32,000 nt of DNA from Desulfocapsa sulfexigens DSM 10523 (GCF_000341395.1 NC_020304.1:840001-872000); one strand, 5' to 3'; numbered from the stretch's first letter, positions 4,642-32,000 are shown. Made by a program: numbers and translations. Notes: generated by a model not told the origin, from the sequence alone.

Positions 4642-4697
4642 CCTGCAGGCAATTTCCCGGGTGGGTAGTGCGTAGAGACAATACACGGCTACAGGTA

Positions 4698-6470: not shown

Positions 6471-9265
6471 GATGTTACCTTTTCTGCCATAAGAGGATCG
6501 ATTATCTTCTGATATTCCTCTTGCGCGGTGACAAAGACTTCCATTCCTCCATGCAGAGCGTTTGTGTATGCCCTGTGCTCTAAATCCTTAAACAGGGCTG
6601 AAAGGGACAGGGCACCGATGTTTGCGCTACTTGATTTCAAGCTATGGGCAATGGAGCGAACCTCCGTTGCATCCTTGTTCCGCAAAGCCCGGCACAGACT
6701 ATCCATCTGATTTGGGGTATCCTCCAGATATATGGATATAATACGAGTAAGGATATCAGGTTCTCCTTCTGGCTGCAGAGCACGAATATTATCAAGTGCC
6801 CTGCGGTTAATCAGTTCTTCACCGACGACACTCATGGGGCTTTCTGAATGTGATTCTTTCTGGAATACTCTCTTGTCATCCTGCTGCAGCTTCTTCGGTA
6901 ACCAGTGCTTCAACACCTTTTCAACCTGCTGCAGACTGAAGGGCTTACTGATATAGTCATCCATGCCGGCTGCAAGACATTTTTCCCTGTCTCCGGTCAG
7001 GGCATTTGCTGTCAAAGCAACAACCGGTGTCCGCTTTCCTCTGTCTTTCATATTTTCCAAACGTCGAATGGCAGAAGTTGCTTCATATCCATCCATACGC
7101 GGCATCTGACAATCCATAAGGACAATATCAAAAGAATTCTTTTCAAAAAATTGCAACGCTTCCTGGCCATTCTTCGTCAATGTTACCTTACAGCCGAGCT
7201 TACGCAGTACTCCCATGGCCACCTGCTGATTTGTGACATTATCCTCTGCCACCAGAACATTAGCATCAAATGTAGCCCGGTTTTTCTGCAGACTATAGTG
7301 GGTAATGAGCTGGTTATCGTCTTCGAATCGATCTCTTGCCATCAAGGCAACGAGACTGTTATAGAGATCAATCTGACGAGTTGGTTTAGTAAGGTAAATT
7401 TTGATACCGGCTTGGTGAGCCAGGCGAGCATCACCGCGTATACCAACGGAAGTGAGCATGACCATACGAGTGCCCTGCAAAGAAGGATCCTTACTGATCA
7501 GGGCAGCAACTTCAAGGCCATCCATACCGGGCATATCTTTATCAAGAATTGCTATGTCAAAAGGCTTCCTGTCAGCCACCGCCTGATACAACAGGGTCAG
7601 TCCTTCAATTCCACCTGAAGCGCTGGCATGATCAACCCCCCAGATTTCCATCTGATGCTCAAGTAGTCGCCGGTTGGTAGCATTATCATCTATAATGATT
7701 GCCCGCAGGTTGGATAGCTTATCGGCCTCGGTCGATGCAACCACCTCCGTTCCCGAGGCCTTGTCCAGGGTTACTTCCATCCAGAACTCTGACCCGCCTC
7801 CAGGACGACTATTGCAGTTAATCTCTCCCCCCATTAGCTCAACGAGTTGCCGGGAAATTGCCAGGCCAAGCCCTGTTCCCCCGTATTTCCTGGTGGTAGA
7901 GTCATCTGCCTGCGAAAAAGGATGGAAGAGTGTTTCATATTCATCTTCAGAAATACCAATCCCCGTATCCTGGACCGAAAAGCGAAGGGATGCCTCGTTA
8001 TCAGTCTCTCCAAGGAGCGTCAGCTGGAGAAGAATTTCCCCATGATCCGTAAATTTAATAGCATTCCCCAGCAGATTAACCAGAACCTGCCGCAACCTGC
8101 TGGGATCACCGCTAACGTAGGAAGAAATATTGTCAGGGACATTGACAATCAGCTCCAGGCCCTTGGCATGTGCCCTGTAAGCAAGCATTTGAGCGACATC
8201 TTCCACCAGCAATGCTAAATTAAAATTAATTGTTTCGAGCTCAAGTTTACCGGCTTCGATTTTAGAAAAATCAAGGATATCATTGATAATGGTAAGCAGG
8301 GATTCCCCCGAACTCATGATCGTCTCAATGGAACTGCGCAGCTCCTTATCCAAATCTGTATCGAGCGCCATCTCGGCCATACCAAGAATACCGTTCATCG
8401 GAGTACGGATCTCATGACTCATGTTAGCAAGAAACTGTGATTTTGCTTTATTTGCAGCCTGGGCCTGCTCCGCCAGAACAATGGCCTCGTCCATTGCCTT
8501 TTTTAGCTCGACAGTACGTTTCTGTACCTGATCCTCAAGGTATTCATCACGCTTCTGGATCATGCTGAGCATATCATTAAAACCACTGGCCAATAAGCCA
8601 AGTTCATCCTCGCTGGATTGTGTGGCACGGAGGGAATAATCCTTTTTTTCAGAAACCTGCCGAATAATAGCGGCCAGCTTAACAACAGGATCAGTAATAA
8701 TCGTCTGTAAGCGATTTCCCAGAATGGCGGCAATCAGCAATCCTCCCCAGAGAATAGCCAACAGGTACAGCCCGACCTGAAGCATATTACTGTAGAGATC
8801 CTCCATACTGACCTGTATAAAGAGAGACCCGATTTTTTCCTTATCAAGAACAATGGGCTGAAGTACCTCAATATATTTTTCGCTAAAGAGGTACCCCTTT
8901 TTCTTTAATTCAGCATTGAACAGGCTATGTTCAACGTTTCCATTATTAGAAGACCCTGGCGAATAGGCTGCAACGATCACTCCTTCAGGGCTAACAATAC
9001 GGGAACAGATAATTGTTTCTTTAATGGAAAGAGACCGCAGGATTTTTTCCAGTGCTTCTACATCATGAAAAACCAGGCCTGCTCTACTATTCTCACCAAT
9101 AATCTGAGCCAGTGTCGAAAGCTCTGCAAGAGTATTTTTCCTATAGAGATACCACTGACTGACAAAGGTGACCGCAAAAGTGAGAATAAGAACAGAAAAA
9201 CAAACACCAAGAATAATGGTGTTAAGCTTATGTTTGACAGGCAGTTTACTGAAGCGAAAATTCAT
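6467..9265 (-). CDS. Hybrid sensor kinase: TM, periplasmic domain (CHASE8-like by architecture), TM, HAMP, HisKA, HATPase_c, REC, REC, HPt
   Basis: 932 aa. H-box [16 protein letters not shown] and G boxes [15 protein letters not shown] and [10 protein letters not shown]. Two receiver modules (DKDMPGMDG and [11 protein letters not shown]). HPt motif [12 protein letters not shown]. The ATG overlaps the stop of the YfiR-like gene (9262-9265). Confidence 0.94.
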
Positions 9266-9825
9266 TTTGCCCTCCCCACAACTTCAACAGCAAGGGAAAG
9301 CAACTGTGAATCTATTTTGATATGATTCTTAAGAGCATATTCAAGATTGACGAGAAAGCGCAACCGCTCCCTCAGTGTCACAAACTGAACAACCCCTCCC
9401 TGGGCAGCAAAATCCGTCGCGTCACCCACCGTCACAATTGCTTTGGAACCGAGTACTTGAAGTACTTTCCCCACAGACTTTAAAGGTGGCATACTGATAT
9501 ACAGAAGATGACATTCCTGCACTTCTTCAACCTTGGAGAAATGGCGGATAACAATGGGGCGATTACGCACGGTTTTTTGAGCCAATGGAGCTAACTCGGC
9601 TTCAACAGAACTCCTCCCAAGCACCCCTATCACCAGGGGAGACTGCTCATCAGTGAAGGTCTCCTCGGGCCATTGGATAAATTTGGCAAAATTATAAAGG
9701 TAAGCCACCTTCAGCTTGTCTTCAGAGGACGGAGCTGCCCCCTGTCCTGGGAGAACAAAACAAAAGATACAGACCAGATTTATGAGAGAAACAATACGTC
9801 TCAATGGGTTCCAGTTGTCATTCAA
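9262..9825 (-). CDS. YfiR-like periplasmic protein (DUF4154)
   Basis: Signal peptide ([20 protein letters not shown]) followed by [16 protein letters not shown], which I recognise from memory as the DUF4154/YfiR signature. The only start before the signal peptide is TTG at 9825, which overlaps the receptor stop (TTGA). Confidence 0.8.
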
Positions 9826-11843
9826 AATTTCCAGGTCAGCTTTGCGTAGACACTCTGGCCGATTTCAGTGGCCGGAATAAAATAATCGTGTACAAACTCC
9901 AGGTGATCTGATTCCAGGAGGTTTTGCCCAACCAACATCAATTCGAGCTGTTCAACAGGTGTCCAGATAAAATTGAGATCCAGGGCAACATAGTCATCCA
10001 CTACAATTCCGGTAGAGTAGGTGGCCAGTCCAGCGGCAGCCAGCTGATCGACATAGCGTGCCCAGAAGTTGAAACGAAGTGTTTCACTCAACTCCATGGA
10101 CGAATGTAATGATATCTGATGCTCCGGACTTGATCCTTCCGCAACAAGTTCACTGATGGATCCCCCATAGTTCATTGCAACGCTTGAGGTCATCTGCAGA
10201 TTAATGTAGCTGTAAGAGAGTTCGGTAGCCAGCCAGGAAAGAGGCTTCCATCGACTGCTGATCTCCAGGCCATAACTCTGTCCTTCTAAACCATTCACAA
10301 AGAGAACAGACACCGGATTCTCCGGCAGATAATCAGTCAGGTTTTTATAGTCATTATAAAACAGCGCCATATCCACAGAAAAATCACTGCATGGCGAGTA
10401 GCGGTAGCCCCCTTCATAGGCAATAACTTCCTCTGCCTCCAGCTCTGGATTACCATAAACTGAAACCATGGAAAACGGTGGAGTGGGGAGAGGCCCAGAG
10501 ACAATACGCCCGCCATCTTCTACCCTTGAAGGGGTTCGAACCGCACGGGAAACTGCAGTCCAGATGTTATTCCCCGGATTCACTTTCCAGAGAAGACGGA
10601 TACTGGGCTGGATTTCAACTCCTGTGTAAACGTTGTGCTCCACTTTTGTGCCAAGAGTGAGCTTGATCCCGTCTTCGAACAGGCCGATCTCATCCTGGAT
10701 AAAGCCGCTGAAGAGTTCACTGGTCTGTTCAGCTGGTTCAATACCAACTGTATAGGAATTACTAAACTCGTCAGAAATATTCCGATAGCCTAAACCCCAG
10801 ACGATATCGTTCTTTGTCCACTTGAAATGATGCTGAAAATCGAAATCCACGGTGTGGTGTTTCTGGCCAAGGTAGGTTTCATCCCGCTCGGTTACATCAA
10901 AATATGCCTGAAAGGTCCAGCTGTTTGTCTCAGACAGCTTGTGCTGCCAGCGACCGAGCAGATTATAACCGTCACTTTTAATCTGGTCATCAACGGTTAA
11001 CGGCAGGGGTGTTCCCTCGGCCCATATTGGGAATACGAGTTGGCTGTCATCTCCCTGATACAGGTCTCCCTGCAGAGTCCAGTTATTTTGCAACCCGATA
11101 TCTCCATCCAGGCGAACCCCAGCACTGGAAAGCTGTGAATCATCGTGGGCATCCGTTTCATCAGCCAGTAACTGATAGGAGTCCCGATCATGCCGGTGAA
11201 GGTAAAATCGGCCATAGGTGTCATTGTTTACCTGTGTTCCGTAACGTAAAGATACAATACCGGTTTCATGGTTTCCGGCAGCGACACTGACCAGCCCCCC
11301 CTGGGTGTCGGAAGATTGTTTTGTGATGATATTAATGATGCCGTTCACAGCATTGGCGCCCCAGAGAGTTGCCCCGGGGCCTCGGATAACTTCAATCCGC
11401 TCCACATCCTCCAGCACCACATTCTGCACATCCCAGTACACTCCGGAGTAGGATGGCGTATAGACGCTGCGACCATCGATCTGTACCAGCAGTTTATTGG
11501 AGAACACCCCATTGAAACCACGGGAAGTGATAGCCCATTTAGTAGCAGTCATCCTCGAAACCTGCAGGCCGGGTGCCATGCGAAGTGCCTCGGGTATGGA
11601 AGTGGCACCCGAGTTGTGGATAGCTGCCTGGTCGATCACATAAACTGCAGCCGCTACATCACCAAGATTCTGAGCCTTACGGCCGGCCGAGGTGATCTGG
11701 ATCTCCATCAGCTCGGAGAGATCCAGATCGAGCATCTCTTCCTCCGCAGCCCAGAGTGCAGCAGGAGTGCTTATCAGCAAAATGCAGGACAGCATCATAC
11801 CTGTTTTTAACTTTCGAATTATATGAGACATCTGGTTTTCCAT
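9822..11843 (-). CDS. TonB-dependent outer-membrane receptor (plug plus beta-barrel)
   Basis: 673 aa. Signal peptide. Plug motifs IPEALRMAPGLQV, IDGRSVY and IEVIRGPGATLWGANAVNGIINIITK. C-terminal aromatic residue (KLTWKF). The start could instead be M5 at 11831. Confidence 0.92.
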   Translation of the reverse strand: MENQMSHIIRKLKTGMMLSCILLISTPAALWAAEEEMLDLDLSELMEIQITSAGRKAQNLGDVAAAVYVIDQAAIHNSGATSIPEALRMAPGLQVSRMTATKWAITSRGFNGVFSNKLLVQIDGRSVYTPSYSGVYWDVQNVVLEDVERIEVIRGPGATLWGANAVNGIINIITKQSSDTQGGLVSVAAGNHETGIVSLRYGTQVNNDTYGRFYLHRHDRDSYQLLADETDAHDDSQLSSAGVRLDGDIGLQNNWTLQGDLYQGDDSQLVFPIWAEGTPLPLTVDDQIKSDGYNLLGRWQHKLSETNSWTFQAYFDVTERDETYLGQKHHTVDFDFQHHFKWTKNDIVWGLGYRNISDEFSNSYTVGIEPAEQTSELFSGFIQDEIGLFEDGIKLTLGTKVEHNVYTGVEIQPSIRLLWKVNPGNNIWTAVSRAVRTPSRVEDGGRIVSGPLPTPPFSMVSVYGNPELEAEEVIAYEGGYRYSPCSDFSVDMALFYNDYKNLTDYLPENPVSVLFVNGLEGQSYGLEISSRWKPLSWLATELSYSYINLQMTSSVAMNYGGSISELVAEGSSPEHQISLHSSMELSETLRFNFWARYVDQLAAAGLATYSTGIVVDDYVALDLNFIWTPVEQLELMLVGQNLLESDHLEFVHDYFIPATEIGQSVYAKLTWKF

Positions 11844-11949
11844 AACAAATATAATCAGTACAAATCATCTTTTACTATTGTTTCACAAGAGAGTATTAAT
11901 CCCACCTATAAAAATAAAATTGACATTTTTTTCACAGCAACAAGTCCTT

Positions 11950-14241
11950 TCACTCTGGGCTTAAAGCAGAGTTGATCCCCTCTCGGAGTTCTTTCATGTC
12001 AAATGGTTTTGACACCGCTGCACAAAATCCATAATCACGATAATGAGAAAGAACCTGGTCGTTCGAGTAGCCACTGGAAACTATTATTTTTGCTTCAGGA
12101 GCCAGTTGCAGCAGTTTACGGGCAGCTTCCTTTCCCCCCATGCCACCGGGAATAGTAAGATCCATAATTACAAGATCAACAGGTGTCCCCTTCGCCTCCA
12201 TCTCCTGATATAACCGTATTGCCTCATTACCATCAACGGCAAGAATTGCCTCGTGACCAAGGGAGGCAAGTTGCGCCTCAACCAATACACGGATCATCTT
12301 ATCATCATCCATCACCATAATCCTGGATGCCCTTGGCAATGGCATGCTTTTCTCATTTTTGTTAGTGCTGCAAACAGCACCGGGGTCAGCCGGGAGATAA
12401 ATGTTAAAGGTCGTTCCCTGACCGGGACTCGAATGAACCGTTATACTTCCATGATGCTTTAGAATAATCGTATGACTGATAGCCAGCCCTAAACCATTGC
12501 CCTCTTCTTTCGTACTGAAATAGGGGTCGAAGATGTTATTTATAATTTCCTGCGGAATCCCCGATCCGCTATCTTGGAGAGTAATGCGGACAAAGAAATC
12601 ATCACTATGCCTGCTCACCAGAAGCTCGGAAGAACCGGCTTCAATGTTCTCACAGCTGATGTTCATTGTCCCACCCAGCGGCATGGCATGTATGGCGTTA
12701 ATGACCAGATTCTGTATAACCTGGCTGACCTGTCCACTATCCACCTGAACCATCCATAAATCATCCGGAAAAAAATACTCACAGGAAACCTTGGAGCCAT
12801 GGAGAACAAAATCTGCTGATTCCTGAATAAGCTGGGCCAAAGCAGTGCATTCCTTTACCGGTTCACCTCCTTTTGAAAAAGTTAAGAGCTGCTGAGTCAG
12901 TTTTGTCGCCCTTTTGGCAGCCTTTTGAGCGTCTGCAAGAAGAGAAAATGCTGTATCATTCTTTTTAAGGTGTGCTGTAGCGAGCTCAATATTTCCAAGG
13001 ATAACTGAAAGAATATTATTAAAATCATGGGCAATCCCTCCGGCAAGGACCCCAACCGATTCAAGTTTTTTGGCCCTGAAGAGTTCTTCCTCCATCTGCT
13101 GTTTCTCTGTAATATCGCGTGCGAGCATAAGGAAATGAAAGGATGTCTCTGAGACCTGTTTCTTAGAAGTGGAAAGTTCAAACCAGTGCTCTCCTTCTGC
13201 CAGGGGCAGCCTGATTATCTGGCCATGAGATATACCCTGCTCTGCAGCTTTCTCAATAGCCTCCATCACCACCCTGGAGGCATCAGCGGGAAGGATCTCG
13301 CTCACCGTATGCCCCAGAAGGATCTCTTCTTGAGCAGCCAGAAGCGTTGCATCCTGAGCCCAGATTTCGATATATTTCCCTCTTCTGTCGAGCTCGAACA
13401 TAAGATCTGGAATGGCAAGCAAGGTAGCATCGAGATCGGCATTGGCCCTTCGCAGCTGTTCTTCAGTGGATTCCCGACTCTCAATTTCCTTCATCAGTTC
13501 CTGGTTTCTCTCCTGTAATTCAAGAGTGCCACGAACAATCAGTCCTTCTCTCTCATCGATTTCATCGTTCAGCTCGTCAATTAAAAGCGCATTCTCTTCC
13601 TGCAGTCGTATTGACCGCAGAATGTTTTTATTTAGATTGCGGGCAAACAGAATCGTCATGATCAGGTATATGGTCACCGCAAGCGCCAGCCATTGATAAG
13701 AACTGTCCTGGTAACAAAACAGGTTACCAGCCAAAACTGCTCCCTGGGGGAGGATATAGAGGATAACAGCCGGCAGGGAAGCAGCCAGAACAGGAACAGC
13801 CACACTGATAACCCCAAACGCCAGGAAGACCAGTGCAGCAAAAACGAAAGGATCATTCTCGTCATTGAGAAGGAAATATACCAGACTCCAGGCTACTCCA
13901 ACCAGCCCGCACCCAACACAATAGGAAACTAACCAGCCTGAAGAAGAGCGTAATTCCGGTCGTTTTTTTCTAAGATACCACAGTCCGATACGGTATGAAG
14001 CCGTAACAAACAAAGCCAACAACCACACAAGGAGAAGAGGCGAATCCAGACGTGGCTGCAATAAAGAGTAATAAAGAAAAGAGACGAGGAAGATGACTGT
14101 GTTGGACACGGGGGCCTGCATATACAGCAGACGGACTCGTTCATCCTCAACAAAAGATGACTTCGAAAGAGAATTACCAGCAGAAAATGCGGGGTGAGAT
14201 TCTGTCATTTGTGAAGATCTCTGGTCATCAAAGCAAGACAA
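11950..14241 (-). CDS. Hybrid sensor kinase: multi-pass membrane domain, coiled coil, PAS, HisKA, HATPase_c, REC
   Basis: 763 aa. About 6 hydrophobic helices at the N-terminus. H-box AGGIAHDFNNIL. G-boxes DSGSGI and GNGLGLAIS. Receiver motif VIMDLTIPGGMGG. The track start is TTG at 14241, preceded by GGGAG 7 nt upstream. An alternative ATG lies at 14208. Confidence 0.9.
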   Translation of the reverse strand: MSCFDDQRSSQMTESHPAFSAGNSLSKSSFVEDERVRLLYMQAPVSNTVIFLVSFLYYSLLQPRLDSPLLLVWLLALFVTASYRIGLWYLRKKRPELRSSSGWLVSYCVGCGLVGVAWSLVYFLLNDENDPFVFAALVFLAFGVISVAVPVLAASLPAVILYILPQGAVLAGNLFCYQDSSYQWLALAVTIYLIMTILFARNLNKNILRSIRLQEENALLIDELNDEIDEREGLIVRGTLELQERNQELMKEIESRESTEEQLRRANADLDATLLAIPDLMFELDRRGKYIEIWAQDATLLAAQEEILLGHTVSEILPADASRVVMEAIEKAAEQGISHGQIIRLPLAEGEHWFELSTSKKQVSETSFHFLMLARDITEKQQMEEELFRAKKLESVGVLAGGIAHDFNNILSVILGNIELATAHLKKNDTAFSLLADAQKAAKRATKLTQQLLTFSKGGEPVKECTALAQLIQESADFVLHGSKVSCEYFFPDDLWMVQVDSGQVSQVIQNLVINAIHAMPLGGTMNISCENIEAGSSELLVSRHSDDFFVRITLQDSGSGIPQEIINNIFDPYFSTKEEGNGLGLAISHTIILKHHGSITVHSSPGQGTTFNIYLPADPGAVCSTNKNEKSMPLPRASRIMVMDDDKMIRVLVEAQLASLGHEAILAVDGNEAIRLYQEMEAKGTPVDLVIMDLTIPGGMGGKEAARKLLQLAPEAKIIVSSGYSNDQVLSHYRDYGFCAAVSKPFDMKELREGINSALSPE

Positions 14242-21964: not shown

Positions 21965-22741
21965 ATGGAACAGCTAATATATACCAACAACCGCTATCAT
22001 ACCCCAGCGAATGCAACTTCTTTCTGGGGGAAGCTCTTTCCGTCATTCTCATTCTATATGAGTTTTCTGGCTAACGTCTATTTTTCCAGCAGAAAAGCAA
22101 AACAGGGGAATTATGACAATGCAGCATGGTGTCAATCAAGCTACAAAGTCCTACGGGCCCTGGAACGGACAGGACTGCAGGTATCGATAGCCGGTGTTGA
22201 ATACCTGCGGGGCCTTGACTCTCCCTGCGTCATTGTAGGTAACCATGTCAGCATGATGGATACGGTTATTGTTCCAGCTATCGTGGTTCAGGAAAGACCC
22301 ATGACTTTTATCATCAAAGAGAGCCTGATGGAGTACCCGGTGTTTAAACACGTGATGCGGTCACGGAACCCCATTGCCCTCAGCAGGAAAAATGCCCGGG
22401 AGGACTTGAAAAAAGTACTCAGTGAGGGACAAAAACGACTGCAACAGGGCATATCCGTCGCTGTTTTTCCACAAACCACCAGGGGGACAGATTTTGATCC
22501 AAAACAGTTTAACACCATCGGAGTCAAACTTGCCTTGAAGGCTGGGGTTCCGGTACTCCCCCTCGCCCTGAAGACCGATGCCTGGACAAACGGTAAGATC
22601 ATTAAGGATCTGGGGCGAATCCGCCCGGAAATTTCAACCCATTTTTGCTTTGGCCCACCAATTACCGTTGAAGACAAAGGAAAAGAAGCTCACCGCAAGG
22701 TAATTGAATTTATCAGTGGAAAGTTGAAGGAGTGGCAATAA
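21965..22741 (+). CDS. Lysophospholipid (1-acylglycerol-3-phosphate type) acyltransferase, PlsC family
   Basis: 258 aa. HX4D motif NHVSMMD. FPQTTRG motif, cf. FPEGTR. Confidence 0.85.
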   Translation: MEQLIYTNNRYHTPANATSFWGKLFPSFSFYMSFLANVYFSSRKAKQGNYDNAAWCQSSYKVLRALERTGLQVSIAGVEYLRGLDSPCVIVGNHVSMMDTVIVPAIVVQERPMTFIIKESLMEYPVFKHVMRSRNPIALSRKNAREDLKKVLSEGQKRLQQGISVAVFPQTTRGTDFDPKQFNTIGVKLALKAGVPVLPLALKTDAWTNGKIIKDLGRIRPEISTHFCFGPPITVEDKGKEAHRKVIEFISGKLKEWQ

Positions 22742-23477
22742 ACTCAAAAGCCTCGGCTGCCAACCAGCCACTGCGTCCAGCTTCGTCGACGACAAGGACA
22801 TAGTTATTGTGTACCCTTTCAGGATGGACCATTCGCCCTTCCTGAATGGTACCAATTGAAGCAGCAGACTCAAAAGGTGACACCCGAAGTCGTGCATCCG
22901 ATACCACAACGACCCCATCCTGCCAATGTTGATATTGTCCGGCAGCTCCAACAGTAGCCACTACCATGACAACCAGACAGGCTGCAGCAAGCCCGTAGCG
23001 AGTCGTTCGTTTATATGAAGGAAAGATCGGTACCAGCAGAACCACCCAAAAAAGTACAAAAGCTGTTACCGTGAGCCCCAGCCACTGATTCAGGCCGATA
23101 AAAGAGACAAAGCGCTGTATAAAAGACTGCTCTTCCTGAAACAACCCGCTGTTTTTGCGAACGAGTTCAAGATTTCCACGACTATCGGAGTCTCCGGGTG
23201 CCAGCCGCAATGCCCGCTCATAGTTAAGAATAGCCCTGCCACTCTGGCCGGCCTGAGCGTAACTGTTTGCCAGATTATAGTAAAGTGGTGCTGATACTCC
23301 CCCCCCCGTTAATGATTCAAAAAGCTGAATCGCCATCTGGTAATCACCCCTGCTGTACGCTGCTGCAGCATTCTGAAACTGTACCTGGGTATCTTCTTCA
23401 ACCGCCCACAGCAGCTGTGATGAAGTCAGGAGAAAAAAACAGACCCCACATACAATCTTCTGTAAAAAGTCTGTCAT
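22713..23477 (-). CDS. batE: BatE-like protein (TPR, TM helix, C-terminal SH3-like domain)
   Basis: 254 aa, last gene of the Bat operon. TPR motif (GDYQMAIQLFE...YYNLANSYAQAGQSGRAILNYERALRLAPGD). TM helix. C-terminal GWLAAEAF segment. The ATG overlaps the BatD stop (ATGA). Confidence 0.8.
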   Translation of the reverse strand: MTDFLQKIVCGVCFFLLTSSQLLWAVEEDTQVQFQNAAAAYSRGDYQMAIQLFESLTGGGVSAPLYYNLANSYAQAGQSGRAILNYERALRLAPGDSDSRGNLELVRKNSGLFQEEQSFIQRFVSFIGLNQWLGLTVTAFVLFWVVLLVPIFPSYKRTTRYGLAAACLVVMVVATVGAAGQYQHWQDGVVVVSDARLRVSPFESAASIGTIQEGRMVHPERVHNNYVLVVDEAGRSGWLAAEAFEFIATPSTFH

Positions 23478-25387
23478 CTCAGCCCTTCCAGTTCCTTTTT
23501 CAATTCACTCACAATACCCTGCATCTCCTGAGGATTTAACTCCTGCCCACCATAGGCACTTTCATCTGCAGCCCTGAATATTGGCAAAAGAGGTGAATCG
23601 GTGGAAAGTCGTTTCTCCAGGTCGGCATAGGTAATTGCCCCCGCCTCCATTTCCCAGACAAGGCCAAGTTGCTCCTGAATAGCTCTGCGACAGGCGGCCA
23701 GGAACCCCCTTGAGTCATTGACCGCAAGGGCCTGTTCGATTTCCTGGACACGTAACAGAAGCAGATGTTTCATGGCCTGCTCCCTTTGCAGTCGTGCATT
23801 CCCCGCATATCGCGCCGCCCTTAGTTTCAACACCAATACTACCAGGAGCAGGAGAAGCAACAACCCGGCCAGAACCTGAAACCATTTTCTTGCAAACAGA
23901 GGCGTCAATTCCTGATTCAATTCTCCGGGAGTCAATTGCAGGGGAGCCAGACCATTCAGCGGCGGAACAACCTCCTGCTCGGCCTCTGCAGGTTTCATCT
24001 CCTCTTTTCCCTGATCCTTGTCTACTTTTACAGCTACAGATGGCGCCTCCTCCGTTTCCCTCTCCTGGATATTCAGAGGAACAGGATCTGCAATCAGGGT
24101 CTTATATGTGGTGCTAAGCGGATCAAAATAGCTGAATCTGATGGCCGGAATTTGTTGCAGGTTCTGATCTTTTGCAACGAGCGCCTGCTCAAAAATCTTC
24201 TTTCCATGGCCGGGCCCACCATCCTTTAAAAACTCTGAGGATGGCGTGTAGGTCTTCCAACCCTCTTCAGTAGCCAGTTTCGGCACCTGAACCCGATCAA
24301 AATTCCCCTGACCACTTATGGTCATGGTAAGAGTAATGGGATCGCCGGGTGCCACCGTAAGTGGGCTTGCAGTGACATCCAGATTGAAATCTCCAATAGC
24401 ACCACTAAACCCTTCCGGTTTACCATCCAGCGGCAGAGGAAGTACGGTCAGGCTGAGTGGAGGGCTTGCAATGGTCACCTCTTTTTCGCTGTAGGAAGAA
24501 AAGAAATTATTAAAAAATGGATCATGGCCACCAAAAGGACTGGTTCGTTGTTCCGGGAGAAGAAGGGTTGCAGCAATATCCACACTCAGCTGATGAACAC
24601 CCTCTTTAATCCCTGACAAGGCCGACTGCCACGATAGCACGTTGTAGCGACTGTCATTTACAAGTTCCCTGGTCTGCTCCGGCTCACGTTCCAGCTGCTG
24701 AAGCACAAAGCCGTCCCCCTGCAACTGCGGCAAACTGTTAAGATTCGCCTTAATAGTGTCACGAAAATATACTTTTATCTGCACCGGAACAATCTCACCG
24801 CTGTAACTTTTTTCTTTAACAGGTAATACCCGAAGAAAAGCTACTTTATCGGACTCTCCGGAGCGAAGCCTGGCAGAAGAAGAGCCACCCGACGTCTGTG
24901 GCTGCACCGTCGCAGCCTGTGGAGCTGTTACTGTAAAAGTGATCGGGCGGGTCATCACGGTTCCCTCACCTGTCACAACCTTTATGGCGGGAATGGTAAA
25001 ATCACCCTCACGAAATGCCTCCACATGAAACAGAGTTGAGACAGATGCCGAATAGGCACCGTTAATCAGATTCATCTGAGTGGACTGACCCCGTTGATAA
25101 AAACGAAGTCCTTCAACTTCAGGCATCTGCGGCTCTGACGACCGTGCTCCTGTCACAGAAATGGTGAGTGCCGCGGCGCGATCCAGTGGGAAGCTGGAAA
25201 CATTCAATGATGCCGTCACCTCCACCTCAGCATATGCAGATTGAACAACTGGCAGCGTCAATAAAAGAAACAATACAGTACCTAACGCTGTTGATGAAGG
25301 GTGAACCGGCACTCTTCTCAGGAGCCCCTTGATGAAGCCAGGCACTTTCATTATTCTATTATATGAAAAATTGTCTCTACTCTTCAT
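23474..25387 (-). CDS. batD: BatD-like (oxygen tolerance family) membrane protein
   Basis: Large exported domain plus a C-terminal TM helix (WFQVLAGLLLLLLLVVLVL). Operon position is after the VWA/TPR genes. The track start at 25393 is TTG; the ATG at 25387 shares one nt with the upstream TAA. The start remains uncertain, with another Met at 25351. Confidence 0.78.
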   Translation of the reverse strand: MKSRDNFSYNRIMKVPGFIKGLLRRVPVHPSSTALGTVLFLLLTLPVVQSAYAEVEVTASLNVSSFPLDRAAALTISVTGARSSEPQMPEVEGLRFYQRGQSTQMNLINGAYSASVSTLFHVEAFREGDFTIPAIKVVTGEGTVMTRPITFTVTAPQAATVQPQTSGGSSSARLRSGESDKVAFLRVLPVKEKSYSGEIVPVQIKVYFRDTIKANLNSLPQLQGDGFVLQQLEREPEQTRELVNDSRYNVLSWQSALSGIKEGVHQLSVDIAATLLLPEQRTSPFGGHDPFFNNFFSSYSEKEVTIASPPLSLTVLPLPLDGKPEGFSGAIGDFNLDVTASPLTVAPGDPITLTMTISGQGNFDRVQVPKLATEEGWKTYTPSSEFLKDGGPGHGKKIFEQALVAKDQNLQQIPAIRFSYFDPLSTTYKTLIADPVPLNIQERETEEAPSVAVKVDKDQGKEEMKPAEAEQEVVPPLNGLAPLQLTPGELNQELTPLFARKWFQVLAGLLLLLLLVVLVLKLRAARYAGNARLQREQAMKHLLLLRVQEIEQALAVNDSRGFLAACRRAIQEQLGLVWEMEAGAITYADLEKRLSTDSPLLPIFRAADESAYGGQELNPQEMQGIVSELKKELEGLR

Positions 25388-27387
25388 TACCAATCCTTTG
25401 ATATTTTCTGATCCCTGGTACCATTGGAAATGGCCCCTGGAACAAAATTCAACTCACCCGTCTCATCTTTTAAACTATTCAAGAGCTGTTTAGCTTCTTC
25501 TTCCGTCATTTTCCCCTGACTTCTTCGTTCCTGAGCCCTTGCTGTCGCTTCCTGCTGCTCTTTGTCCCTGGCTGCATCCTCTTCTGCGGCATCCTTATTT
25601 TCTTCCTGCTGTTCTTCTCCGGCAGCAGAGGTATCCTGTTGATCCTGCCCCGTCTCGTCACCTTCATCTTCCTTTGCAGAATCTGAATCATTCCGCTGCT
25701 CCTGCCCACTCTCCTGTGATTCCTGGTCTCCGGAATCGTTTTCAGAGGAATCCTCATCCTCGCTTTGCTGGCCCTGATCCTGATCCTGCTTCTGCTCCTG
25801 CTGCTCTTTATTGTCGTCTGAGTTTTGATCCTGATCTTTCTTTTCCTGATCCTGCTGTTCCTGCTGTTTTTTGAGTTCCTCAAGCTTCTTCTTTACAAGC
25901 TCAAGATTATAATGGGCGTCATCATGCGTAGAATCCAGCTGAAGGGCACCATCGAAGGACGCCACGGCCTCACTCCACATTTGAATGCTGTGTTGAGGGT
26001 CAGTCTGCAGCGTTTCTTTGCCTCTCTGGAACAGGGCATTACCCCGATTATAATATGCCTCCTTCTGAAGCTCGAGATCATCACTTTTCAGTGCTTCGGT
26101 GAATGCCTTGGCCGCATCCTCAAACATATTATTTTTATACGCTGCAGTTCCGTAATTGTAGTGTAACCTGGCATCATTTGGAGACTCCTGCAACTGTTCA
26201 TCGTAGAACGTTGAAGACGTAAGAAAATCTCCTGAGGCGTAAGCATCTTCTCCCTTTGACGCCTCAGCATCCTCCACCCATGCCAGAGTCCCCAGTCCAA
26301 AAAGTAGCACCAGAACAGCCGCAGCCTCCTGTTTTCTTCGACGTCCTGCCGTTTTTATAAAGGGAAGTCGCAGGCTACGGGCGGATTTTCTTCCTCCAAG
26401 CAGAAACTCGATCATGAGTAAAGCAATGGCAACACCCAGAGGCCACACGAATCGTTCCAAAGCAACCTTATGTCGTTTTTCCGCAAGCTTTTCCTTAGGG
26501 ATAAGAGATAACTTCTTCTGGTATATGGTCTGCAATCCTTCACCACTGTTTCCAAGCGGCACATACAGTCCCCCTGACAGCTCTGCAATTTGCCCAAGCA
26601 TGGTTTCATCAAGGCGTGAGGTGATAAAATTCCCCGACTCGTCCTTAACAAAACCACTCCTGCCATTCTCCATAAAGGGTATCAGTTCTCCCTCACTGCT
26701 GCCAACGCCAACGGTGTAGATGGTCATACCCTTTTCTGCTGCAGCCTCTGCAGCTTTTAAGACATCTCCCTGAAGATTTTCACCATCGGTAATCAACACC
26801 AGTATCTTATGGTTCGCTTCGTTTGAAAGGACTGTTTCCGCTTCAACGATTGCTGCCGCCAAATCGGTCCCGCCCCTGGGGATGATCGTGGTATCAATTG
26901 CCTCAAGAGAACTTTCAAAGGCACTGTAATCAATGGTCATGGGACACATCAGAAAGGCTGACCCCGCAAAGGGCAGGATTCCCACCCTGTCCCCTTCCAG
27001 CTGGCTCACAAAATCCAGAATGGCAAATTTTGCCCGTTTGAGACGATTAGGACTGACATCCTCTGCCAACATGCTTTTTGAGGTATCCACAGCAAACAAA
27101 ATATCAATACCCTTTCGCTTCACATCTATCCATTTAAAACCGTACTGCGGTCTGGCAAGTGCTATAAAACAGCAGCCAATCGCCGTAAGAAGGAGGATTC
27201 TTTTCAAGAGACGTCGCTCAAGAGAAACATTAGCGCACAATTTTCCAAGCAAGTGTGGAGCTGCAAACTTCTGCAGCTGTTTTTGTCTTTTCTGAGCGAT
27301 TTTCCTATACAAAAAAATAAGGATGATAAGAGTTACTGCCCCAACAGAAAACCAGAAAGGAGCACCAAATGTGATCATTTCACTCAT
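25387..27387 (-). CDS. batB: Fused BatB/BatC-like protein: TM, VWA domain, TM, TPR, long acidic low-complexity region
   Basis: 666 aa. VWA MIDAS-type motif DILFAVDTSKSM. LVLITDGEN. TPR block (YNYGTAAYKNNMFEDAAKAFTEALK...YYNRGNALFQRG). D/E/Q-rich stretch of roughly 135 aa. The ATG overlaps the BatA stop. Confidence 0.85.
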   Translation of the reverse strand: MSEMITFGAPFWFSVGAVTLIILIFLYRKIAQKRQKQLQKFAAPHLLGKLCANVSLERRLLKRILLLTAIGCCFIALARPQYGFKWIDVKRKGIDILFAVDTSKSMLAEDVSPNRLKRAKFAILDFVSQLEGDRVGILPFAGSAFLMCPMTIDYSAFESSLEAIDTTIIPRGGTDLAAAIVEAETVLSNEANHKILVLITDGENLQGDVLKAAEAAAEKGMTIYTVGVGSSEGELIPFMENGRSGFVKDESGNFITSRLDETMLGQIAELSGGLYVPLGNSGEGLQTIYQKKLSLIPKEKLAEKRHKVALERFVWPLGVAIALLMIEFLLGGRKSARSLRLPFIKTAGRRRKQEAAAVLVLLFGLGTLAWVEDAEASKGEDAYASGDFLTSSTFYDEQLQESPNDARLHYNYGTAAYKNNMFEDAAKAFTEALKSDDLELQKEAYYNRGNALFQRGKETLQTDPQHSIQMWSEAVASFDGALQLDSTHDDAHYNLELVKKKLEELKKQQEQQDQEKKDQDQNSDDNKEQQEQKQDQDQGQQSEDEDSSENDSGDQESQESGQEQRNDSDSAKEDEGDETGQDQQDTSAAGEEQQEENKDAAEEDAARDKEQQEATARAQERRSQGKMTEEEAKQLLNSLKDETGELNFVPGAISNGTRDQKISKDW

Positions 27388-28370
27388 GGCAGGCGCCTCC
27401 TCCCAAGCATAATCTCAATTCCCAGAAAAAATAGGGCAGCAAAGACAAACCAGGAGTAAAGCTCCCGGTAATTTTCAAATTTCTTGATGTTTCGGGTAGT
27501 GGTTTCCATGGTATTTATCTCTTGATAGACCTTCTCCAGAGATTTTGTGTCGGTAGCCCGAAAATAACGTCCCCCTGTCATTTCAGCAACCTGCCCCAAC
27601 GTTTCATCATCGATATCAACCCTGACCCGCATAAGACGTTTTCGCCCAAACCGGTCTTTTACAGGCATTGGAGCCTCGCCTCTTGTTCCGGCACCAATGG
27701 TATAGACCTTGATCCCAAGTGTTTCAGCGGCCTCAGCTGCAACAAGAGGTGGGACCGTACCGGCGTTGTTCATCCCATCGGTGAGGAGAATCATGATGCG
27801 CGACTTGGCATCACGATCACGGAGACGGTTCAGTCCGCTGCCAATGGCCGAACCAATCGCAGTACCGTCCTCAATCATCCCTATGGACAAAGAATCCAGA
27901 CGCTGTACCAGCCAGTCATGATCCAGTGTAAGAGGACTCACCATATAGGGACGGCCACTGAAGGCAAGCAGCCCAATACGATCATTGGGCCGCTCCATAA
28001 TAAAGGTGTGCATAACCGATTTCACGACATCAAGCCTGTTGGCAGACTTTCCTTTCAAGGTGAAATCCAGTGCCTCCATGGAACCCGAAACATCAACCGC
28101 CAGCAGAATATCAATGCCGCTTGCTTCAATTTCAGTGGTGGTATTCCCGAGCTGGGGACGCGCGAAGGCAAGGATAAGAAACCCCAGGCCCAGAAGGCGA
28201 AGCGCAGCGATTATCCCCCCCGGCCCTGTTTTCCGTCCTTCTGCTAAAACAGCAGCAATGGAGGTGGAGGAAAAAACAAGTGCGGGTGCAGCACTTCTTC
28301 TCCCACGTAGAATGGCGAGCAGAGGCAGGAGGGCGAGAAGCCAGAGAAATTCCGGGTGTAAAAATCGCAT
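27384..28370 (-). CDS. batA: BatA-like VWA-domain membrane protein
   Basis: 328 aa. N-terminal MRFLHPEFLWLLALLPLL. VWA motifs DILLAVDVSGSM and ILLTDGMNN. C-terminal TM helix. Confidence 0.88.
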   Translation of the reverse strand: MRFLHPEFLWLLALLPLLAILRGRRSAAPALVFSSTSIAAVLAEGRKTGPGGIIAALRLLGLGFLILAFARPQLGNTTTEIEASGIDILLAVDVSGSMEALDFTLKGKSANRLDVVKSVMHTFIMERPNDRIGLLAFSGRPYMVSPLTLDHDWLVQRLDSLSIGMIEDGTAIGSAIGSGLNRLRDRDAKSRIMILLTDGMNNAGTVPPLVAAEAAETLGIKVYTIGAGTRGEAPMPVKDRFGRKRLMRVRVDIDDETLGQVAEMTGGRYFRATDTKSLEKVYQEINTMETTTRNIKKFENYRELYSWFVFAALFFLGIEIMLGRRRLP

Positions 28371-28374
28371 AGTC

Positions 28375-28899
28375 CTACCTGCCTCCGTCCCTGGTTTCGC
28401 GGGTGGATTCGATAAAATCCCCTATCGCTGTTTCCATTTTTTTCATACCATTCAGATCCGGGGTACAACGGGCAAATTTCGCCATATCGCACTGATTAAG
28501 ACATTCCCGCAGACTGTTACGATGTTTCTCCGAAAATGTTATCTGCCTGACTCCAAGATTGTCTGTAAGATGACCGAAAAACTCTTTCGTGGTTTGTCTG
28601 GTCGTTTGAATGTGAAAACGATTTTCAATATAGCGCCGTAAAATATCAGAGACTTCCTGGGCATATGACAGGGCCTCCTCGCCATTCATTCTGCTCCTGG
28701 CCCGCTTGAGGTCCTCCAGTGCCGTTTCATGGGCAGAAGGGAGAATAACAGCCTTCTTTCGCAGACGAAAAAACCAGAAGAACAGGGCTGCCATAATCAA
28801 AAAAACGAGTATTACTAGAGCGAACAGCAGATAGTTCGGATCTTCAGGTAACGGTAAGGGAGGGTGGATATCACGAAGTTGCAACTGTTCCTGATTCAT
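28375..28899 (-). CDS. DUF4381-like small membrane protein
   Basis: 174 aa. LRDIHPPLPLP followed by one TM helix (LLFALVILVFLIMAALFFWFF). It occupies the conserved slot between the DUF58 and BatA genes. The ATG overlaps the DUF58 stop. Confidence 0.7.
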   Translation of the reverse strand: MNQEQLQLRDIHPPLPLPEDPNYLLFALVILVFLIMAALFFWFFRLRKKAVILPSAHETALEDLKRARSRMNGEEALSYAQEVSDILRRYIENRFHIQTTRQTTKEFFGHLTDNLGVRQITFSEKHRNSLRECLNQCDMAKFARCTPDLNGMKKMETAIGDFIESTRETRDGGR

Positions 28900-29810
28900 C
28901 TGCTGAGCCTCCTTCTTCTGTTGCCAAAGAAATTCAACAGTGGCGGCACATAGGACTGGTCAGTGGAGAGATCGAGAAGATCGACACCCGCCGAGCGAAT
29001 AGCTTTATTGAGTGTTTTTCTTCTGTCGGCTGCAAGCTCCGCATAGCCTCGACGCACAGAAGGGTCAGAGGTGTCGAGTTCTACCTGAACTCCACTCTCA
29101 GCATCTTCAATGGTGAGCCAGCCCACATCGGGGAGGGTATGCTCACGCGGATCCGAAATAATCATGGCGATTAAATCATGGCGACGGTTACTCACCTGCA
29201 GTTTCGGCTGCAGAGCTGTTAAGGCCTTTTCGAAATCACCGGGTAGACAGAAATCTGAAATAAGAAAGGTGACACATTTACGCCTGGCAACTTCATTTAC
29301 AAAATCAAGGGGAACAATCAGGTCTGTTTTCCGGCCCTGGGGCTGAAAGAAGAGGATCTCCCGAATAAGTCTGAGGATATGTGATCGTCCTTTTTTGGGC
29401 GGGATATACAGCTCCACAAAATCTGAGAAAAGAATCAGACCAACTTTGTCATTATTACGAACAGCCGAGAAGGCAAGCACTGAGCCGATCTCAGCCATAA
29501 CTTCCCGTTTAGAACTTGCAGCGGAACCAAAATCTCCTGAACCGGAAATATCAATCAGCAGCATAATGGTGAGTTCCCGCTCTTCGGTAAACTTTTTGAT
29601 ATGGGGTACCCCTGTTCGTGCCGTAACATTCCAGTCAATGGTTCGAATTTCATCTCCCGGCACATATTCCCGGACCTCGTCAAAATTCATACCTCGTCCC
29701 TTAAAAACGGACTGGTAGCTTCCAGCTAGAGTATCGTTGACCAGCCTGCTGGTTCGAACCTCTACCTGACGAACCTTCTTCAGAATTTCCCTGGTGATTT
29801 GCTCTTCCAT
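28896..29810 (-). CDS. DUF58 protein (MoxR-associated, VWA-like fold)
   Basis: Motif GSYQSVFKGRGMNFDEVREYVPGDEIRTIDWNVTAR is typical of DUF58. The track start at 29840 is TTG and would overlap moxR. I prefer the ATG at 29810, 7 nt after the moxR stop. Confidence 0.88.
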   Translation of the reverse strand: MEEQITREILKKVRQVEVRTSRLVNDTLAGSYQSVFKGRGMNFDEVREYVPGDEIRTIDWNVTARTGVPHIKKFTEERELTIMLLIDISGSGDFGSAASSKREVMAEIGSVLAFSAVRNNDKVGLILFSDFVELYIPPKKGRSHILRLIREILFFQPQGRKTDLIVPLDFVNEVARRKCVTFLISDFCLPGDFEKALTALQPKLQVSNRRHDLIAMIISDPREHTLPDVGWLTIEDAESGVQVELDTSDPSVRRGYAELAADRRKTLNKAIRSAGVDLLDLSTDQSYVPPLLNFFGNRRRRLSR

Positions 29811-29817
29811 ATCAACC

Positions 29818-30879
29818 CTATGGGACAGGAACGGTATCAAGAATTTTTCGGATAATATCCTCTGTTGTTATCGCCTCGGCCTCGGCCTCATAACTGATAC
29901 GAATACGATGTCGCATCACATCCATGGCGGCAGATTTCACATCATCGGGTGTTACGTATCCCCGTCCGGCCAAAAAGGCCAGGGCCCGGGAAACGGTTTT
30001 CAAATTAATGGTCGCCCGGGGTGAGGCTCCGGTTTCTATATAGTCGTGAAGATCAAGCTTGAAACTTCTGGGATCACGGGTGGCACAGACGAGCGAAACA
30101 ATATAATCTTTTATTTTGTCATCCATATAAATGCTATCTACCACCCTGCGTGAAGCAAGAATATCATCCGGTCCGACGACAGGATTAACCACAACAACAG
30201 AATCAGTATGATCAACGGCGTCAAGGATCATACGCTCCTGAGTCATGGATGGATAATCCACAATAACCTTCATCATAAACCTGTCTACCTGTGCTTCGGG
30301 CAATGGATAGGTCCCCTCCTGCTCAATGGGATTCTGGGTGGCAAGTACCAGAAAAAGCTCTGGCAGACGAAAGGTCTCGTCTCCAATAGTCACCTGTTTT
30401 TCCTGCATGGCTTCAAGCATGGCAGACTGCACTTTGGCAGGAGCCCTATTGATCTCATCAGCAAGAATAAGCGACGAGAATATTGGTCCCTGCTTGACCT
30501 CAAAAAGCGTATCCTTAGGATTATATATCTGAGTCCCTATAATATCGGCGGGCAGCATATCCGGAGTAAACTGGATACGCTGAAAATCCGTATGTATAAC
30601 CATAGCGAGGGTTTTTACCGCCAGTGTCTTGGCAAGCCCCGGTAATCCCTCCAGCAGGATATGTCCTCCAGTAAGCAATCCCACAAGGAGACGTTCCACC
30701 AGGTGCTCCTGGCCAATTATGGATTTAGCCATCTCCCGACGCAACAGACCAACCCAGGAAGAGCTCGCAACAACGGATTCATTGATAGCCTGAATGGAGG
30801 TATATCCTTCCTGCCGTACTGATTGGGGTGGAAGAGATGCAGATGAAACCGGATTAACAGATCTATTTTGCTCGTTCAT
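29818..30879 (-). CDS. moxR: MoxR-family AAA+ ATPase
   Basis: 353 aa. Walker A-like GLPGLAKT. Walker B LILADEINRA. VLATQNPIEQEGTYPLPEAQVDRF is typical of MoxR/AAA_3 proteins. Confidence 0.93.
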   Translation of the reverse strand: MNEQNRSVNPVSSASLPPQSVRQEGYTSIQAINESVVASSSWVGLLRREMAKSIIGQEHLVERLLVGLLTGGHILLEGLPGLAKTLAVKTLAMVIHTDFQRIQFTPDMLPADIIGTQIYNPKDTLFEVKQGPIFSSLILADEINRAPAKVQSAMLEAMQEKQVTIGDETFRLPELFLVLATQNPIEQEGTYPLPEAQVDRFMMKVIVDYPSMTQERMILDAVDHTDSVVVVNPVVGPDDILASRRVVDSIYMDDKIKDYIVSLVCATRDPRSFKLDLHDYIETGASPRATINLKTVSRALAFLAGRGYVTPDDVKSAAMDVMRHRIRISYEAEAEAITTEDIIRKILDTVPVP

Positions 30880-31140: not shown

Positions 31141-31977
31141 ATGTTTATGAGAAAAATCATTCCGTTTGTCCTTGGCATTTTTCTTTTTCTCCCAACAAAC
31201 TCTTATGCGCTCGAACGCTTTGAAATTTTCACCACCTCTCAATTGATGCAGCTGCTTCAGGACAGAAAGGATGGAAAAACGGACTTTCTTCTCGTCAATG
31301 CCCTTGACGAAATGATCTACCGCCACGCCTTCATCCCCGGTTCGGTGAATATTCCCATCACCCAGTTTGGGCAATATGCTCACAGGCTCGGAAAAGACAA
31401 AAATAAGCTGATAATTTCATACTGAATGGGCTACAGGTGAGTATTCGCCTACAAAATGGCAGTTGCCATTAAAGCAAAAGGGTTCACAAATATTAAAATA
31501 TACAATGGTGGACTGAAGGACTGGATACAATCAGGCAATCCCACGGAATCAATAGAAACCCTTCCAGAAGCAACCGTCCAGTTTATCGATGTCAATCAAT
31601 TAAGGATGCTTCTTTCCGAGGCTGACAAGACAAACTGTATGGATAAAAATGGTAAACCACTTCTTACACTTATTGATTTCCGTTCCTCCAACAGTGATTC
31701 CATAAAAAAAGGGGCAGATAAATATCGGATAGCAACAAAATGCCATACCATTTCAGCATTGCTTGATGAATTTATTGACAACAATAGCCTTATCGAATCC
31801 ATCCCCTTAGAAGGACTTACTATTTCTATCAGTGAGACAGGAAACAGAGACACGTTCCTTATCAGATATCTCTCCAAATGTTGCAGACCTGATATCCGAG
31901 GTCTTAAATACGGTATGAGAAGCTGGATAAAGGCCGGGTATCCTGTGGAAAAAACAGCCCATTCGGACACAAACTAA
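31141..31977 (+). CDS. Exported tandem rhodanese-domain protein read through two in-frame TGA codons (candidate selenoprotein, 278 aa)
   Basis: Track ORFs 31141-31425 and 31456-31977 share one frame (offset 315 nt). The only interruptions are TGA at 31423-31425 and TGA at 31438-31440. The joined sequence ...KNKLIISY-U-MGYR-U-VFAYKMAVAIKAKGFTNIKIYNGGLKDWIQSG forms one complete rhodanese domain, with the first TGA at the catalytic Cys column. The ATG at 31456 has no SD. Signal peptide IIPFVLGIFLFLPTNSYA/LE. AAGGA RBS at 31133-31137. The second domain has Ser at the catalytic column (ISISETGNRD). Confidence 0.65.
31435..31450 (+). promoter_or_regulatory. Candidate SECIS-like hairpin 1 (6-bp stem, GUAU loop); its stem contains the second UGA
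   Basis: Pairs are A31435-U31450, G-C, G-C, U-G, G-C and A31440-U31445. The loop is 31441-31444 and starts 15 nt after the first UGA. Confidence 0.35.
31455..31470 (+). promoter_or_regulatory. Candidate SECIS-like hairpin 2 (6-bp stem, AGUU loop)
   Basis: Pairs are A31455-U31470, A-U, U-A, G-C, G-C and C31460-G31465. The loop is 31461-31464 and starts 20 nt after the second UGA and 35 nt after the first. Confidence 0.35.
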
Positions 31978-32000
31978 ATGCTTAAAAGTCTTCGTGCCAA

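Follow-up and report, generated by a model that had tools for sequence, protein, structure and literature searches.

Rhodaneses that contain selenocysteine (Sec, U) are known in several arrangements. A 2026 review (PMC13188914) distinguishes five forms of rhodanese selenoprotein: the motifs given for forms 1–4 are UxxS, UxxG and CxU (NF041203, rhodanese_LYCAU), and form 5, TsoB (NCBIfam NF045694), carries two Sec residues as UxxxxU. TsoB is listed there, with reference to Haft & Tolstoy 2025, as a rhodanese/DsbD fusion-like selenoprotein. Earlier work had described a further form, UxU, in Olavius symbionts. Here we analyse a 32,000-nt stretch of the genome of Desulfocapsa sulfexigens DSM 10523 (GCF_000341395.1, NC_020304.1:840001-872000; hereafter the window). 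Judged from its sequence and that of its relatives, positions 31141–31977 on the plus strand hold a real, conserved and unannotated selenoprotein gene, a tandem rhodanese with a predicted signal peptide and two in-frame TGA codons, both of which most likely encode Sec. The marine bacterium D. sulfexigens disproportionates sulfur compounds; its genome paper counts nine rhodanese-related sulfurtransferases, the present gene not among them.

The closest described protein is TsoB, which likewise has a rhodanese domain with two Sec residues spaced by four positions in the active-site loop and which gave the best NCBIfam match to the first domain of the present protein (E values from 1.5e-12 to 8e-17). 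We set TsoB apart on profile score and domain description. Three members of the present family scored 46.4, 46.3 and 60.5 bits against a cut-off of 805, over profile positions of about 42–162 only; the DsbD-like membrane domain is absent, and a predicted signal peptide and a second, degenerate rhodanese domain are found instead. The present family also differs in a first loop position that toggles between Cys and Sec, and in an obligatory histidine kinase neighbour, the only conserved one in a Pfam scan of the neighbouring genes; for TsoB, the neighbourhood would be expected to contain TsoA/TsoC selenoprotein genes. Because TsoB has UxxxxU, the U-x4-U loop, of which the original prediction knew no example, is not new; because the TsoB model failed, the protein is taken to be a new, unannotated rhodanese selenoprotein. 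The other forms (1–4 and UxU) also come from Deltaproteobacteria and place Sec inside the active-site loop or beside it, but with different motif spacing, and the invariant Sec of the present family would lie at loop position 6, not at the catalytic position. The CxU model rhodanese_LYCAU (NF041203) was rejected, with 29–41 bits against a cut-off of 115 and a spacing of x4 here, and no model of NCBIfam release 20.0 reached its cut-off on the window protein or on diverged orthologues. A literature search for CxxxxU or UxxxxU returned the TsoB entry only, and neither deep-Sep nor a 2022 review includes the present form. Across the literature and libraries searched, the primary TsoB paper excepted, the family and its mis-annotation, the invariant position-6 Sec combined with a catalytic position that toggles, the candidate nested pair of recoding hairpins and the universal kinase partner all appear to be undescribed.

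The interrupted gene and its orthologues

A single plus-strand frame runs from an ATG at 31141 to a TAA at 31975–31977 and comprises 278 codons, including the two proposed Sec codons. The only interruptions are two TGA codons, at 31423–31425 (UGA1) and 31438–31440 (UGA2); no TAA or TAG occurs in frame anywhere in 31141–31977. The two TGAs are five codons apart, separated by ATG GGC TAC AGG (MGYR), and the 278-aa read-through product reads ...LIISY-U-MGYR-U-VFAYKMAVAIKAKGF..., as originally proposed. Translation could alternatively begin at a second ATG, at 31147. The downstream open reading frame (ORF2; ATG at 31456) would give a 173-aa protein identical to UWK_00748 of D. sulfexigens DSM 10523 (AGF77326.1 / WP_015403022.1, "hypothetical protein"), and the whole gene consists of an unannotated N-terminal fragment plus UWK_00748. 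Public records of every isolate examined split the gene in the same way into two separate short proteins (for example, Dalk_0460/0461, DSCA_29210/29220 and, in Desulfopila aestuarii, WP_073614800/WP_073614799). The N terminus, MFMRKIIPFVLGIFLFLPTNSYA followed by LERF, looks like a Sec-type (secretory) signal peptide, which as read from the sequence would span 31141–31209 on the plus strand with cleavage before LERF; a hydrophobic N terminus followed by [LMIF][ED]RF is kept in all orthologues. The export proposed at the outset is thus still predicted.

Only the read-through product contains an intact rhodanese domain, as had been suggested: the Pfam Rhodanese profile (PF00581) matches residues 39–130 across the interruption, with 44.8 bits against a cut-off of 22.2 (E 1.9e-11), and neither fragment is a complete domain. 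This first, presumably active domain lies at 31255–31530 (plus strand) and spans both TGAs. Structure was modelled on the orthologue P0005, in which Trp stands at both Sec columns, and the resulting AlphaFold model is a tandem rhodanese (predicted local distance difference test score 92, predicted template modelling score 0.86) that matched tandem rhodaneses in Foldseek searches with E values down to 7e-16. The two TGA columns are residues 1 and 6 of a loop that joins strand 71–75 to helix 82–93 of the model, and the ORF2 ATG falls within that helix. Domain 1 therefore combines a profile score above the gathering cut-off with the strand, six-residue active-site loop and helix of a rhodanese. 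The second domain, placed by the alignment and the P0005 model at approximately 31588–31950 (plus strand), appears degenerate: its loop reads S-E-T-G-N-R, with Ser (31831–31833) at the catalytic column, where P0005 has Thr, and it holds neither Cys nor Sec. The inactivity originally ascribed to this domain was rightly judged. Its Cys codons at 31636–31638 and 31741–31743 are invariant in 31 aligned ORF2 sequences and might be joined in a structural disulfide or serve the Sec loop as a relay partner.

About 73 relatives of 42–99% identity came out of a protein search, and nearly all of them are ORF2-only calls of about 173 aa. Two calls span the full gene, P0005 (JGI) and P0076 (ENA), both with Trp at the two columns; they are automated calls on short metagenome contigs, for which a TGA=Trp code was presumably used, and through such calls public protein sets come to contain full-length 'W-x4-W' rhodaneses that are spurious. 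We therefore compared orthologous DNA from 46 genome loci (Desulfocapsa and other Desulfobulbia, Desulfobacterales, Fundidesulfovibrio and Geopsychrobacteraceae) and 23 further distinct metagenome sequences, which gave 69 distinct sequences of 40–99% identity. Column 2 is TGA in all 69. Column 1 is TGA in 42, TGC in 14 and TGT in 13, so that 42 of the 69 would encode U-x4-U and 27 C-x4-U, with at least ten Cys/Sec switches on a neighbour-joining tree. The Desulfatibacillum loop, for example, would read C-MGYR-U. None of the 69 has a further in-frame stop or a frameshift, and none has Cys at column 2. Identities at the three codon positions (0.75–0.80, 0.87 and 0.50) follow the same frame on both sides of the TGAs. 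Interruption of the same two columns in 69 diverged sequences is, on this comparison, far beyond what chance would produce.

One of the orthologous contigs, L020 (JBKICO010000343.1; 3.6 kb), comes from a metagenome-assembled genome (MAG) labelled Acidobacteriota and clusters at 90% with Fundidesulfovibrio agrisoli and F. soli; mis-binning is the probable explanation, rather than presence of the gene in an acidobacterium.

The comparison with Sec-free homologues places both columns at Cys positions, as foreseen. An exhaustive search with the domain-1 orthologue P0076 gave 1,296 relatives, and among the top matches 125 domains have Cys at both columns, with the consensus [FY]-C-G-G-x-x-C-x-x-S. 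The structure of BH2092 (PDB 3NHV) has C-WGPA-C at the same two columns and superposes on domain 1 with 1.9 Å over 110 columns. These Cys-x4-Cys periplasmic multi-rhodaneses (the [FY]CGGxxCxxS clade, including BH2092, PDB 3NHV/3O3W) are the nearest Sec-free homologues, and many are exported tandem or triple rhodaneses; they differ from the present family in lacking Sec and in their varied genomic contexts. On the orthologue columns and these relatives, UGA1 would place Sec at loop residue 1, the canonical catalytic position, and UGA2 would place it at loop residue 6. The original prediction had put the first TGA on the catalytic Cys, which stands for UGA1; the invariant Sec, on the other hand, is that of UGA2, and the catalytic position toggles between Cys and Sec. 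The reading of the locus as a read-through selenoprotein gains support from this alternation at column 1, from the constancy of column 2 and from the SECIS-like hairpin described below. P0095, with the loop C-LGYPVDF and a degenerate C terminus, looks like a decayed copy.

Candidate recoding hairpins

In the published model of the bacterial selenocysteine insertion sequence (bSECIS), a short loop at the apex, with the form N1-G-[G|U]-N-N2, in which N1 and N2 pair, lies 16–37 nt from the UGA in a structure of -7.5 kcal/mol or lower. Two hairpins follow the UGA codons of the present gene. The downstream one, H2 (31456–31469, plus strand; AUGGC-AGUU-GCCAU), is conserved, covarying and SECIS-like. 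It is present in all 69 sequences, with a loop of the form [A/G]GU[U/C] in which GU is invariant (69/69). Its positions are 96% paired, with compensatory changes in the stem: pair 41–52 is UA in 32 sequences and CG in 29, pair 42–51 is GC in 64 and AU in 5, and the pair that closes the loop is AU in 57 and GC in 10. The distance to the start of the H2 loop is 20 nt from UGA2 and 35 nt from UGA1, and the hairpin, as judged from the sequence, fits the bSECIS loop and spacing model; at about -6.4 kcal/mol, H2 alone is slightly weaker than the -7.5 limit of that model.

The upstream hairpin, H1 (31435–31450, plus strand; AGGUGA-GUAU-UCGCCU), appears in the minimum-free-energy fold and is a candidate SECIS for UGA1. 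From UGA1 to the start of H1 there are 9 nt, and UGA2 forms part of the 5' arm. Where column 1 is TGA, H1 has on average 5.6 of its 6 pairs and -5.9 kcal/mol, as against 4.0 of 6 and -0.95 kcal/mol where column 1 is Cys. At its synonymous third base, the Arg codon in H1 has G in 42 of 42 sequences with TGA1 as against 16 of 27 with Cys (Fisher 7e-6), and the Ala/Ser codon ends in C in 42 of 42 as against 20 of 27. In sister-clade contrasts, H1 was more stable with TGA1 in five of six (Wilcoxon p = 0.03). An Rfam scan of the window found no family.

On these data, we think it fairly likely that H1 serves UGA1 and H2 serves UGA2. H2 would be the SelB-binding SECIS for the invariant UGA2. Where column 1 is also UGA, H1 would support decoding of UGA1, with the second Sec codon itself lying in the stem of the first SECIS; the translating ribosome would then melt H1, after which H2 would be used.

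The histidine kinase partner and a proposed role

The rhodanese stop codon abuts the ATG, at 31978, of a hybrid sensor histidine kinase gene, of which the window holds only the first 23 nt (31978–32000, plus strand); its identity comes from the orthologous loci. A hybrid histidine kinase of about 800–900 aa follows directly on the same strand at all 44 loci for which enough sequence was available, at a distance that is mostly below 30 nt (range -49 to +83), and the two genes are probably co-transcribed. The kinase has HisKA, HATPase_c and receiver (Response_reg) domains and two transmembrane helices that flank a periplasmic domain of about 265 aa. Because the rhodanese would be exported and the sensor domain is periplasmic, the two would share a compartment. 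When the neighbours in the 44 loci were scanned with Pfam, the kinase was the only conserved one, and no conserved oxidoreductase was found. A CxxC pair occurs in the periplasmic sensor domain of about 15 of 35 kinase orthologues; the pair is not universal, and one kinase orthologue (L014) has the sequence NSCSECHDRR at residues ~81–85, a CxxCH motif that could bind haem c.

Among the Cys-x4-Cys relatives, P0074 and P0102 are encoded beside Psr/Phs-type molybdopterin oxidoreductase operons and P0153 beside a multihaem cytochrome. P0108, which has the same two-domain layout as the present protein, precedes a methyl-accepting chemotaxis protein (MCP). In the other Cys-type relatives examined for a rhodanese–sensor pairing, the contexts were unrelated or uninformative.

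After Sec-pathway export, the [Sec/Cys]-x4-Sec pair would form a redox-active or chalcogen-binding dyad in the periplasm. This pair might take the form of a selenylsulfide or a diselenide, or be loaded with sulfane sulfur or selenium; an analogous carrier role is possible for the Cys-x4-Cys relatives encoded next to polysulfide/thiosulfate-reductase-type operons. The state of the dyad would be reported to the periplasmic domain of the downstream hybrid kinase, so that the rhodanese would act as a periplasmic co-sensor and not as a bulk enzyme. TorT–TorS and LuxP–LuxQ are sensor systems with a periplasmic partner protein, and the present locus resembles them, by analogy only, in that a soluble protein predicted to be exported is encoded beside a hybrid kinase with a large periplasmic domain. 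There is no sequence relationship, however, and the partner here is a rhodanese selenoprotein with a putative interaction rather than a periplasmic binding protein. In its most specific form, the proposal is that a Sec-based co-sensor loop gates the kinase through an undescribed sensor domain, by switching between selenol and selenylsulfide/diselenide or by being loaded with sulfane sulfur or selenium, and that the loop is decoded by a nested SECIS pair; we put this forward only tentatively.

Competing explanations and genomic surroundings

The overall account, a two-Sec exported rhodanese decoded with H1 and H2 that acts as a periplasmic co-sensor, is in our judgement highly likely, but several findings weigh against parts of it. 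ARAGORN detected no tRNA-Sec in the window or the 46 loci, and a Pfam scan found no selA, selB or selD in the window or the fetched loci, these being the only regions covered. In favour of the account, the lineage-level literature describes the Deltaproteobacteria as selenoprotein-rich, with 12 selenoproteins in Desulfotalea psychrophila, and reports all Sec biosynthesis genes in one Desulfobulbus relative. P0094 (L091), a full-length Sec-free near-orthologue on a 1.2-kb contig with no neighbouring genes, has the loop C-KGHG-S, with Ser and not Cys at column 2. For the sensor part, the periplasmic domain of the kinase has no Pfam match (even at E<=5), no PDB relative and no NCBIfam equivalog, the periplasmic domain of the MCP beside P0108 is unrelated to it (E 0.25), and the co-sensor role is drawn from gene adjacency only. 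For H1, no compensatory base changes were seen in the orthologue alignment, its loop lies 15 nt from UGA1 at about -6.9 kcal/mol, just outside the bSECIS limits, and its association with UGA1 rests on six independent contrasts, for which a sign test gives p = 0.11; H2 by itself is at a permitted distance from both UGAs.

These last observations are what would be expected if H2 were a single SECIS for both UGAs and H1 were non-functional, its pairing in sequences with TGA1 reflecting shared ancestry, codon usage or a preference for Ala over Ser. Both H2 distances, 20 and 35 nt, are inside the 16–37 nt range, and H1 misses its limits only narrowly. Such a reading nevertheless has to account for the greater pairing and stability of H1 with TGA1, for the bias at the third positions of the Arg and Ala/Ser codons and for the five favourable contrasts out of six across at least ten switches, and we consider it possible but clearly the less probable of the two. 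We give very little weight to the view that the UGAs are not Sec codons at all, with the gene yielding a 94-aa fragment and a separately initiated 173-aa protein, or being read through by near-cognate Trp, Cys or Arg insertion. Public annotation does keep the two fragments as separate proteins. Yet the column of the ORF2 start is AUG in only 18 of the 69 orthologues and start-capable in 34, as would suit the original view that ORF2 is not a gene of its own; both fragments are incomplete as rhodanese domains; the stops fall exactly on Cys columns, with alternation between Cys and TGA; and the conserved hairpin carries a SelB-type GU loop. Less credible still, to the point of being negligible, are the ideas that the locus is a pseudogene, that it reflects a sequencing error or that the host treats TGA as a sense codon. 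Two automated calls, P0005 and P0076, do read TGA as Trp, but the same two codons recur in 69 distinct isolate and MAG sequences free of the frameshifts and other stops that decay would bring, and purifying selection acts on both flanks, as a comparison suggested with the original prediction showed. TGA is, moreover, the commonest true stop in the window and the orthologues: it ends 12 of the 22 genes of the window, in which an in-frame TGA occurs in the present gene only, and many orthologues terminate the rhodanese gene itself with it. We exclude a pseudogene, a split gene with its own ORF2 and a TGA-sense code because the two columns are conserved across the 69 sequences, the constraint on the frame continues beyond them, the ORF2 ATG column varies and orthologues end with TGA.

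With Sec decoding retained, the serious rival concerns function. The protein could be a genuine selenoprotein that acts as a periplasmic sulfur carrier or reductase, as Sud does with polysulfide reductase, with the kinase adjacent for co-regulation only. The Cys-x4-Cys relatives beside Psr/Phs-type operons and a multihaem cytochrome would suit such a role, as would a host that disproportionates sulfur compounds. It fits less well with a kinase that is the only conserved neighbour at all 44 loci, mostly within 30 nt, and with the lack of any conserved oxidoreductase there, and on balance we regard it as unlikely. The constancy of the kinase pairing points to sensing and not to bulk sulfur metabolism. 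Of the handling of polysulfide, thiosulfate or selenium first envisaged for the protein, the chalcogen chemistry is kept here as a conjecture, and a role in bulk metabolism is disfavoured by that pairing.

If the co-sensor reading holds, the strict pairing suggests a route by which sulfate reducers and sulfur disproportionators could sense periplasmic chalcogen or redox chemistry. The gene is mis-annotated in cultured and genetically relevant sulfur-cycle bacteria, namely Desulfocapsa sulfexigens, Desulfatibacillum, Desulfosarcina, Desulfopila, Desulfogranum and Fundidesulfovibrio. It also offers a natural experiment on Sec versus Cys, in which one loop position takes both residues and the other would be Sec in every motif-bearing orthologue, and a compact system for studying how bacteria decode two UGAs five codons apart.

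Elsewhere in the window, a Bat/MoxR-type 'aerotolerance' operon (22713–30879, minus strand) is divergent from the rhodanese gene and encodes a MoxR AAA ATPase, DUF58 and DUF4381 proteins, BatA, BatB (VWA+TPR), BatD and a TPR protein; this upstream MoxR/DUF58/Bat synteny is confined to close Desulfocapsa relatives. In a dense signalling region at 3001–14241, a PAS histidine kinase and a PAS hybrid kinase are accompanied by a receiver-GGDEF-EAL protein, a CHASE8 hybrid kinase with Hpt, a TonB-dependent receptor and a YfiR/HmsC-like protein.

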